Part shown: piece after piece, positions 3,627 through 62,919 of the stretch
How the letters are laid out: every line of letters begins with the position of its first letter
Position numbering within the stretch: the first letter of the stretch is position 1
NCBI RefSeq assembly: GCF_009931435.1
Contig: NZ_CP043414.1
Strand: one strand, 5' to 3'
DNA from: Escherichia coli
GTDB taxonomy: Bacteria; Pseudomonadota; Gammaproteobacteria; Enterobacterales; Enterobacteriaceae
DNA: 64,000 nucleotides
Notes under the pieces: generated by a model
What the model was told of the DNA's origin: nothing
Seen by the model: the letters and a program-made list of their open reading frames with translations, nothing else
The model's database searches: none
Position numbers and translations under genes: made by a program

Positions 3627-7809
<4,183 letters not shown>

Positions 7810-61593: not shown

Positions 61594-61641
61594 ATTAGCA
61601 ACAAGCGGAACATCACCTCGCACGGGGTGATGTTCACAAAA

Positions 61642-61815
61642 TCACATTATTTTGATTTTGACATCATAGCTTTCAAGCCCGGTCATTTTTTCTCGTGCGG
61701 TGAAGCGAATTTCAGAGACTTCTTTCCCTGTATTCTTGTTCAGCTCGGCGATTTTTTGCGCGATAAAGTCAGCGATTTCCGTTTCGGCTTGTTTTTTTAA
61801 CTCTTCAATATTCAC
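61642..61815 (-). CDS. gnsA: GnsA (suppressor of secG null), 57 aa, GTG start
   Basis: Hand-translated minus-strand ORF from GTG at 61813-61815: VNIEELKKQAETEIADFIAQKIAELNKNTGKEVSEIRFTAREKMTGLESYDVKIKIM; absent from ORF track (under 60 aa). Confidence 0.8.
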   Translation of the reverse strand: MNIEELKKQAETEIADFIAQKIAELNKNTGKEVSEIRFTAREKMTGLESYDVKIKIM

Positions 61816-62035
61816 TGTTAACCTCTTCTGGTCTTAAAAGACAGCAACACGCCAGTAAGGTGTTGGTTCCCGGTACCCTGGTCAGGTAAGAAATGTTATA
61901 AGCTATCTCCCCTAAAGATTCAATAATCAACAGGTTATCGCTTACTATACATACAGCGTTGAAGAAAAATAAGGCAGATATAAAAAAGGCTCCACGAGGG
62001 AGCCTGATCTTATTTTGTGAAATCCAGCGGCGCAT
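61805..62035 (-). CDS. ymcE: Small protein YmcE (Sfa), 76 aa
   Basis: ORF 61805..62068; start at internal ATG (MRRWISQNKIRLPRGAFFISALFFFNAVCIV...) gives 76 aa; 3' end overlaps the gnsA start by 11 nt. Confidence 0.55.
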   Translation of the reverse strand: MRRWISQNKIRLPRGAFFISALFFFNAVCIVSDNLLIIESLGEIAYNISYLTRVPGTNTLLACCCLLRPEEVNSEY

Positions 62036-62208
62036 GGTCAGTGCGTATTTGCAGCGCGACGTTATCAAAGGTGATCATCGTCGATTTACAAAAAATACAC
62101 TTTGCCCCTAAAGGATTTCGCTCCGTCACATCGAATGCCGATGTGCGGTACTGTGAACCATGACAACATGGACAGCGGAAATGGAGATGTTGAGTAATAA
62201 CGGCAACC

Positions 62209-62421
62209 TTAGAGCGTAACAACGTTCGCTGCCGCGGGACCACGTTGCCCCTGCTCAATAGAAAATTCAACTTTCTGATTTTCGTTCAGCGTGCGGAATT
62301 CATTGCTCTGGATGGCGGTGAAATGGACGAAAACGTCTTTGCTGCCATCATCAGGAGTGATAAAGCCAAAACCTTTATCTGCGTTAAACCATTTTACTAA
62401 ACCAGTCATTTTATTAGACAT
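62209..62421 (-). CDS. cspG: Cold-shock protein CspG (CspA family)
   Basis: 70-aa [24 protein letters not shown] with RNP1/RNP2 motifs. Confidence 0.95.
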
Positions 62422-62706
62422 ATTTTACTTCCTTCATTTTGGGCCTTTCGGCAAACAGGGCTTTAATACAGAAACTACTTAGTGTTCAGGAGAGAGACTC
62501 AAAAGAAGGGGATAATGCCTGATAATGAGAACTACTTTAGTAAACTACTTTGTATGCTGTCTGTCTTTCAAACCGACGCAGCTATTAACGCATGATAATT
62601 GAGATTAAGCAATTTTTATTTTAGCCGTCCGGCGGTCTTAAATATCGCTGGCTTTATTTTATTAACCCCGTATAGTGCAGCGCAGTATTTTCAGTAAGGA
62701 ATTTGT

Positions 62707-62919
62707 TTGTCCCGTAAAATGACAGGAATTGTCAAAACCTTTGATCGCAAAAGCGGCAAAGGATTCATTATCCCCTCCGACGGTCGTAAAGAAGTCCAGG
62801 TCCATATTTCCGCATTCACTCCCCGCGACGCAGAAGTGCTTATACCAGGATTACGCGTGGAATTTTGCCGCGTAAATGGCCTACGCGGACCAACAGCGGC
62901 AAATGTTTATCTCTCTTAA
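62707..62919 (+). CDS. cspH: Cold-shock-like protein CspH (divergent CspA-family paralogue)
   Basis: 70-aa ORF (M)[21 protein letters not shown]; first codon is TTG, with an in-frame ATG 4 codons downstream; divergent from cspG. Confidence 0.88.

Follow-up and report, generated by a model that had tools for sequence, protein, structure and literature searches.

The ymcE frame upstream of Escherichia coli gnsA is probably a chance open reading frame covering a terminator, a promoter and the leader of gnsA

Short same-strand overlaps in which the stop codon of one gene lies out of frame across the start of the next are known from translationally coupled gene pairs of the ATGA and TGATG types, and two small co-oriented overlapping open reading frames (ORFs) are the layout of type II toxin–antitoxin modules such as relBE and mazEF. 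The ymcE–gnsA pair of Escherichia coli is like the coupled pairs in its overlap, and like the toxin–antitoxin modules in its layout and its database names. In gene order, the cspG locus in which the pair lies has a paralogue in the cassette cspI–ynfQ–ynfR–ynfN–gnsB of the Qin prophage and lambdoid phages. Common to both are a csp gene, a gene for a CPxC small protein, a terminator hairpin, the TTGATTATTG…promoter block, an AAGAGG Shine-Dalgarno (SD) sequence and a gns gene. The pair is annotated in the K-12 reference, where ymcE (b0991, formerly sfa) and gnsA (b4517) are both accepted as coding. Suppression of fabA6 was reportedly credited first to sfa and later reassigned to gnsA, in work said to be that of Sugai and colleagues from 2001.

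The locus was analyzed in a window of 64,000 nt, the whole stretch of E. coli DNA under study, and the features discussed here are listed in Table 1. Positions 61642–62035 are exactly the union of the gnsA and ymcE ORFs. A sequence-only reading of this DNA had noticed that gnsA starts at a GTG within the last codons of the 76-aa ymcE frame (61815 versus a ymcE end at 61805), giving an 11-nt, same-strand, out-of-frame overlap, and both observations are confirmed by the ORFs and by the RefSeq annotation. It had also remarked that gnsA is absent from the ORF track, as expected for a 57-aa product below the default 60-aa cut-off. RefSeq gives the same gene boundaries and overlap in a 100 %-identical E. 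coli record and in K-12 MG1655. A 1-kb query at the locus matches NZ_ABACVG020000001 at 100 % identity and the K-12-lineage E. coli O16:H48 (NZ_CP043193) at 98.7 %, and the window differs from K-12 at 3 positions of a 261-nt query across ymcE (98.9 % identity). The structure of the locus, including the GTG start of gnsA, is therefore no different from that of the K-12 reference, and the overlap is known, being already part of the standard reference annotation. What the present analysis doubts is the coding status that the reference grants to ymcE. The overlap arises because the ymcE frame stays open through the ribosome-binding site (RBS) and start of gnsA up to a TGA at gnsA codons 3–4, so that its stop is positioned 8 nt past the GTG. 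At its other end, as annotated, the first 26 nt of ymcE overlap the last 26 nt of ymcF, a second overlap absent from the sequence-only reading. Further upstream, the cspG region matches the Rfam cspA thermoregulator at 62155–62577 with 156.9 bits.

Table 1. Features of the cspG–ymcF–ymcE–gnsA locus, in window coordinates
Feature	Position	Strand	Details
cspG, first gene of the upstream transcription unit	62209–62421	minus	Pfam CSD match; annotated
ymcF, CPxC small-protein gene	62010–62198	minus	Pfam PF23641, E=3.5e-50; annotated
ymcE ORF	62035→61805	minus	ATG, 76 codons, stop TGA 61807–61805; RefSeq-annotated
Intrinsic terminator of the cspG–ymcF transcript	61981–62005	minus	terminator scan, fold, Term-seq
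Predicted gnsA promoter	61895–61930	minus	TTGATTATTGAAT block; −35 TTGAAT 61923–61918, 17-nt spacer, −10 TATAAC 61900–61895
gnsA mRNA transcription start site (TSS)	61887	minus	A residue 8 nt past the −10 hexamer; Cappable-seq
gnsA 5′UTR	61816–61887	minus	72 nt, includes SD AAGAGG; equals ymcE codons 50–73
ymcE/gnsA overlap	61805–61815	minus	11 nt, different frames
gnsA CDS	61815→61642	minus	GTG 61815–61813, 57 aa, stop TGA 61644–61642; formerly yccL
gnsA 3′ hairpin (GAACATCACC…GGTGATGTTC) and mRNA 3′ end	61603–61635	minus	common to the convergent gene yccM

The gnsA gene is identified by its product, whose residues 1–54 match all 54 profile positions of the GnsA/GnsB family (PF08178, E=7.6e-36). 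The PDB entries 4XO1 and 4XO2, named 'Protein GnsA', contain the identical 57 residues starting MNIEEL. Upstream of the GTG the frame is closed by a TAA at a distance of seven codons with no start codon between, and the next ATG in frame is codon 44. The SD sequence AAGAGG (61827–61822) lies 6 nt ahead of the GTG and has a duplex energy of −6.5 kcal/mol, which equals the value for cspG and falls in the top 7 % when compared with random 20-mers drawn from the window. Both SD and GTG are unchanged across eight Escherichia loci, and the AAGAGG is also invariant in Qin gnsB and in the Citrobacter gns homologues, four of six of which have an ATG at the position of the GTG. Variable sites in gnsA number 7, 1 and 18 at the three codon positions and pN/pS is 0.02, evidence of purifying selection on the frame from the proposed start. 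The GTG start is correct, and gnsA is most likely an ordinary small gene that stands alone. The sequence-only reading had allowed that one of the two start or stop assignments might be wrong; for gnsA that suspicion falls away, while for ymcE the evidence favors doubt that it is a gene at all.

A separate gnsA-carrying transcript begins at about 61887, a position converted with a 777-nt offset (cspG TSS 1050528 versus the Rfam thermoregulator start at 62577) that may be in error by 1 nt. The underlying Cappable-seq record (Ettwiller et al. 2016, PMC4782308, supplementary file 1) is a TSS at U00096.2 1051218(+) with a score of 74.8. It is the strongest + strand TSS of the locus; the ymcE frame has run for 148 nt at this point, and the GTG of gnsA follows after another 72 nt. 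The same dataset, collected at 37 °C, contains no TSS from the cspG leader to the ymcE ATG (PMC4782308). Judged by their position and conservation, the conserved hexamers ahead of the mapped TSS are likely its promoter, and the site has the hexamers, the 17-nt spacing and the TSS 8 nt past the −10 that are expected for sigma-70. This putative promoter sits within ymcE codons 36–47. The arrangement TTGATTATTGAAT–N17–TATAAC is invariant in Escherichia, and the block is kept ahead of gnsA, of gnsB in Qin and of four gns genes from Citrobacter despite diverged flanks. A consensus promoter scan did not list the site because its rule demands a T at −10 position 6 (here TATAAC); it reported only a weak site inside gnsA, and its output was given less weight than the conservation and the mapped TSS.

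Downstream of the TSS, positions 61870→61813 are near-invariant in all Escherichia loci, with a single change in one of them (L007), and from the TSS onward the ymcE frame lacks ATG, GTG and TTG codons. Across the family, only the promoter and the RBS are conserved. A conserved RNA fold in the gnsA leader was considered and rejected: folded alone, the sequence has lower stability than its shuffled versions (z=+1.07), and an alignment fold of nine homologues gave 3 pairs only, with no covariation. At the other end of the mRNA, Term-seq places the 'primary' gnsA 3′ end at MG1655 1052279, which is window position 61603 (PMC7815308).

The cspG–ymcF transcripts finish at 61981/2. Term-seq (Adams et al. 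2021, PMC7815308, supplementary files 1 and 3) records an RNA 3′ end at MG1655 1051900/1051901, corresponding to window 61982/61981, that is, 54 nt inside ymcE and 166 nt upstream of gnsA. In these 37 °C cultures the end has an intrinsic score of 8.09 and no Rho dependence (PMC7815308); both the Term-seq and the Cappable-seq maps come from 37 °C cultures only. The sequence at this point has the features of an intrinsic terminator, namely a GC-rich hairpin, a U-tract and a 3′ end at the last U/A of the tract. Its 7-bp stem AGGCTCC/GGAGCCT (62005–61999 / 61993–61987) contains 5 G-C pairs, encloses the loop CTCGT and is followed by a T6 run to 61982, with a fold of −17.2 kcal/mol. The terminator begins 5 nt past the ymcF stop and spans ymcE codons 11–18. 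Across Escherichia the stem is invariant and the loop variable, and a hairpin is kept in the Qin paralogue. The Salmonella sRNA family STnc220 of Rfam gave a match of 31 bits versus a gathering score of 60, which is below threshold and leads to no family assignment; the partial match is a hint that the ymcF 3′ end and the terminator may give rise to a stable RNA.

The explanation that accounts best for the locus, and in which confidence is high, is that gnsA is independently transcribed and translated from a correct GTG, and that ymcE is most likely no functional gene but a frame left open across regulatory DNA. Under this explanation, the cspG–ymcF mRNA ends at the intrinsic terminator that begins 5 nt beyond the ymcF stop, as mapped by Term-seq. 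About 60 nt further on, the predicted sigma-70-type promoter TTGAAT–17–TATAAC would fire at the mapped start A61887. The product is an mRNA of ~285 nt, made up of the 72-nt leader with its SD AAGAGG and the 57-codon gnsA, and ending at the hairpin shared with yccM. The ymcE ATG is carried by the cspG–ymcF transcript, within ymcF and with no SD, and that transcript ends 54 nt later; the remainder of the frame is carried by the gnsA transcript, with no start codon in frame. Split over two transcripts in this way, ymcE could therefore yield full-length YmcE only from RNA that reads through the terminator. If ymcE is a chance frame over terminator, promoter and leader, then gnsA stands alone. The evidence indicates that a description of the locus as two transcription units is the better one.

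The relatives used for comparison come from a GnsA scan of one genome per bacterial species, which added six Escherichia lineages to E. coli, along with six loci from Citrobacter. Disruption of the ymcE frame in most relatives had been named by the sequence-only reading as an outcome that would refute it, and this is the outcome observed: all six non-E. coli Escherichia lineages sampled (L003–L008) have lost either the ATG or the open frame. In E. coli, the ATG of ymcE arises across two adjoining ymcF codons, CAT and GCG (His-Ala). It is replaced by AGG or ATA in L003, L004 (E. albertii), L005 and L006, owing to CAG (Gln) or ATA variants in ymcF. Deletions of 1 nt break the frame in L006, L007 and L008 (E. 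whittamii), as does a 6-nt deletion plus a TGA in L003, and in these same four lineages it stops short of a gnsA that is unchanged. Among the Escherichia sampled, the ATG and the complete frame occur together only in E. coli sensu stricto. The homologous spacer of Citrobacter sp. NCU1 carries 4-, 19- and 6-nt insertions and contains no ymcE-like ORF. The ymcE ATG of the window has no Shine-Dalgarno sequence, the 20 nt upstream giving +0.7 kcal/mol against the anti-SD, worse than a random median of −2.4.

These comparisons bear directly on translational coupling, one of two alternatives that the sequence-only reading had offered. Coupling would make ymcE and gnsA two real genes of one operon, in which ribosomes ending ymcE reinitiate at the gnsA start or unfold it. 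The two frames do overlap on the same strand, the position of the ymcE stop relative to the GTG is a compatible geometry, and some literature gives ymcE–gnsA as an operon. However, the gnsA SD and GTG are identical where the ymcE frame is shifted or ends early, and gnsA, unlike the second gene of a coupled pair, has its own promoter, leader and strong SD, with a TSS mapped within ymcE. The ymcE frame for its part lacks an SD, is cut by a terminator that divides its ATG from the remaining ORF, and is under no selection at the protein level, as described below. Coupling is thus largely refuted and must be considered very improbable.

Codon-position and substitution counts were made on 12 Escherichia sequences, with the ymcE-only segment scored for ymcE. 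By codon position, variable sites in this segment number 12/7/13, with 9 gap columns (chi-square p=0.38), versus 5/4/24 in cspG, 4/1/23 in ymcF and the similarly skewed counts given above for gnsA. Between E. coli and E. albertii, pN/pS is 1.01 / 0.82 in the ymcE-only segment, compared with 0.10 in cspG, 0.05–0.07 in ymcF and 0.02 in gnsA. The ratio of nonsynonymous to synonymous changes is 29:12 in ymcE versus 20:81 in cspG, ymcF and gnsA (Fisher p=1.6e-8), and within E. coli alone it is 6:1 versus 3:19 in the neighbors (p=0.001). At 0.078, 'synonymous' divergence in ymcE is a quarter to a fifth of the 0.31–0.43 measured in the neighboring genes, which points to constraint on this DNA as nucleotides and not as codons.

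The distribution of the predicted protein was also surveyed. YmcE, for which curated family models exist (Pfam PF15939 and NCBIfam NF007379), forms 28 clusters among 5.8 billion proteins, all from Escherichia/Shigella but for one partial 'Salmonella enterica' sequence on a 532-nt contig. Many of the cluster members are truncated, double-frameshifted, or fused with CspG, YmcF or GnsA. Cluster size was tried as a proxy for constraint and set aside, since all four genes have 205–578 members and it does not discriminate. In a search of 50,697 phage records YmcE was absent, and GnsB was present there, adjoining ynfN. The hydrophobic YmcE 'protein' (FFISALFFF…) would be the translation of the T-rich terminator tail and the promoter region, and YmcE is presumably produced in no meaningful amount. 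On five independent lines of evidence, namely loss of start and frame, substitution pattern, missing translation signal, narrow distribution and the regulatory elements in the DNA itself, ymcE is therefore probably not a functional protein-coding gene but a chance frame over the terminator, the promoter and the gnsA leader. The reassignment of fabA6 suppression from sfa to gnsA would fit this non-coding reading.

The pattern within E. coli raises the possibility of a very young, E. coli-specific gene that arose de novo and encodes a small hydrophobic protein made from cspG–ymcF read-through RNA, for example in the cold. The ATG and full frame are near-universal in E. coli sensu stricto and confined to it, the ORF with its ATG being intact in 59/60 E. 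coli genomes sampled from 5,414 with a match. The length of the frame is also unusual: a sense-strand ORF of at least 76 codons over the spacer appears in 1–2 % of dinucleotide-preserving shuffles, so that the ymcE ORF exceeds 98–99 % of them. An ORF of this length is locally uncommon, yet dozens are expected across the intergenic regions of one genome. The region is reported to be stress- or cold-responsive at the RNA level, but the gnsA promoter, or read-through without translation, explains such induction equally well. In the literature, forced expression of the ymcE ASKA clone has a small effect on n-butanol tolerance. Against a protein-coding role stand the excess of nonsynonymous changes within E. 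coli, the lack of an SD at the ATG and the frameshifted and fused ymcE variants that circulate among E. coli isolates, and the terminator, promoter and RBS account for the conservation seen at the nucleotide level. A functional de novo gene is accordingly judged unlikely.

CspA-family proteins can antiterminate at intrinsic terminators, an activity reportedly described by Bae and colleagues in 2000. A more specific form of the proposal can be framed, in which ymcE is a de novo gene at birth, read-through by Csp proteins during cold shock would give a cspG–ymcF–ymcE–gnsA RNA, and translation of ymcE would tune GnsA or yield a small hydrophobic peptide. In it, ribosomes that now and then translate ymcE through the SD and start codon of gnsA would adjust GnsA synthesis and, with it, membrane unsaturation. 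This scenario is rated as distinctly unlikely.

The reading of ymcE as a chance frame also bears on the label under which the pair circulates, that of a type II toxin–antitoxin module with YmcE as antitoxin and GnsA as toxin. This label derives from Pfam and PGAP names and appears in several reviews. The Pfam families are called 'YmcE_antitoxin' and 'GnsAB_toxin', the PGAP product name of gnsA is 'addiction module toxin', and PMC8484670 lists ymcE/gnsA among the E. coli type II systems. The layout, in which a small upstream gene overlaps a small downstream gene by 11 nt, is that of a toxin–antitoxin pair. Beyond this layout, co-transcription, co-occurrence and selection all speak against such a module. 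The two frames are not co-transcribed at 37 °C according to the published maps. The families do not co-occur: GnsA/GnsB homologues are found in Qin, in 7 phages and at 6 Citrobacter loci without ymcE, the upstream gene there being ynfN or nothing, and YmcE is limited to Escherichia/Shigella. The supposed antitoxin evolves neutrally and shows no purifying selection. As to toxicity, plasmid-borne gnsA alone rescues the growth of relA fadR and lapC mutants in the literature, which argues against a strong toxin. The solved structures contain GnsA alone, and no GnsA–YmcE complex or YmcE structure was found. In the modelling of PMC8484670 the pair is an outlier whose 'toxin' is constantly above its 'antitoxin'. 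The pair thus differs from relBE and mazEF: its two frames are neither co-transcribed at 37 °C nor conserved together, its 'antitoxin' is not under selection, and evidence of toxicity is lacking. A toxin–antitoxin function is extremely improbable. The 'antitoxin/toxin' naming of YmcE and GnsA is, together with ymcE itself, probably an annotation artefact.

The paralogous cassettes show a different gene in the place of ymcE. In the phage and Qin versions, and in most of those in Citrobacter, ynfN (and ynfR) follows the terminator and precedes the promoter of the gns gene. The phage records have GnsB in cspI–ymcF-like–ynfN–gnsB cassettes, and a Citrobacter ORF of 76 aa has 74 % identity to the YnfN frame of Qin. 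In contrast, the cspG locus of E. coli is without ynfN and its spacer is ~280 nt shorter; it has lost ynfN, and the ymcE ORF is found only there. An origin of ymcE as a decayed ynfN was considered and rejected, as a BLASTN search of the spacer against Qin ynfQ–gnsB matched only the terminator, 12 nt of the promoter block and the start of the gns gene.

All parts of the locus belong to established types, namely a small protein of the GnsA/GnsB family, an intrinsic terminator, a sigma-70 promoter and a leader, set in a paralogue of the phage csp–gns cassette. The understanding of gene overlap or of translational coupling is unchanged by ymcE/gnsA. What the analysis adds is the probable status of ymcE and of the toxin/antitoxin naming as artefacts of annotation, and its value lies mainly in curation. 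ymcE is part of the K-12 reference, has its own Pfam and NCBIfam models and has been propagated to thousands of genomes, in which it is labeled 'protein YmcE', 'cold-shock protein' or 'antitoxin', with gnsA labeled 'addiction module toxin'. These labels enter censuses of toxin–antitoxin systems, modelling papers and structure-prediction studies. The locus also provides a clear worked case of a chance ORF that runs across terminator, promoter and 5′UTR. Together, the sequence comparisons and the transcript maps indicate that the 'antitoxin' ymcE is the regulatory DNA of gnsA together with the end of the cspG–ymcF unit.

The annotated ymcF start is a non-canonical ATT at 62198 on the minus strand of the window. 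Eight codons 5′ of it, within the final codons of cspG, lies an in-frame TTG (62222–62220). In Citrobacter homologues, an ATG is found one codon directly before the position of this E. coli TTG, and the upstream residues there read MSWRSKV…, whereas those encoded in E. coli read T-L-L-RSKV. On this basis, translation of ymcF may begin 5′ of the annotated ATT. The SD-like energies at the two candidate starts are −4.0 for the ATT and −2.2 for the TTG. In E. coli TW10690, cspG and most of ymcF have been removed by an IS4 insertion, and PGAP names a 58-aa 'cold-shock protein' on the leftover ymcE frame.

Coordinates of the features discussed (window positions unless a locus is named)
Feature	Coordinates	Strand	Basis
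ymcF start region	62198–62222	minus	annotation, sequence, Citrobacter homologues
ymcF terminator hairpin	61987–62005	both	terminator scan
STnc220 match	61972–62052	minus	Rfam, sub-threshold
gnsA leader, SD and start	61870–61813	minus	Escherichia comparison
cspA thermoregulator	62155–62577	minus	Rfam, full-length match, 156.9 bits
cspH	62707–62919	plus	ORF list; divergent from cspG
ynfN	L016 (MG1655 Qin prophage locus) 3955–4188

The cspA thermoregulator match takes in the cspG 5′UTR and the beginning of its coding sequence, a feature to be expected in a cold-shock csp gene. The neighboring cspH is listed as an ORF of 70 aa with TTG as its first codon, and this length agrees with the annotated 213-nt gene.

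Citrobacter has an intact protein of 76 aa, and the 51-aa YnfN annotated in the Qin prophage amounts to its C-terminal two-thirds; the Qin frame and the Citrobacter protein share 74 % identity across 69 aa. The homologous N-terminal part remains in frame in K-12 (…FFNSEPAVVVPAMTGVNTI-MREYP…) and its ATG is gone, so that Qin ynfN looks 5′-truncated.

The 58 nt comprising the gnsA leader, SD and start are near-invariant across the Escherichia lineages, with a sole change in one non-E. coli lineage (L007), and in the flanking coding sequences of the same lineages as many as 30–40 % of the synonymous sites differ. The conservation of the leader goes beyond the SD; a search of the leader for conserved RNA structure found none. 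In one assembly, that of E. coli O157:H7 FRIK2069, gnsA is annotated as a frameshifted pseudogene (L019 836–1008).

The ymcF terminator hairpin also receives a terminator-like score on the plus strand, where it is followed by GATCTTATTT. This score probably reflects mere hairpin symmetry, since no convergent gene ends there. The final ymcF codons and the terminator are together spanned by the match to STnc220, a Salmonella sRNA (Rfam), which scores 31.4 bits (E≈7e-4 to 5e-3) against a Rfam gathering score of 60. Judging by this match, a stable RNA derived from the csp–ymcF mRNA 3′ end may build up in relatives.
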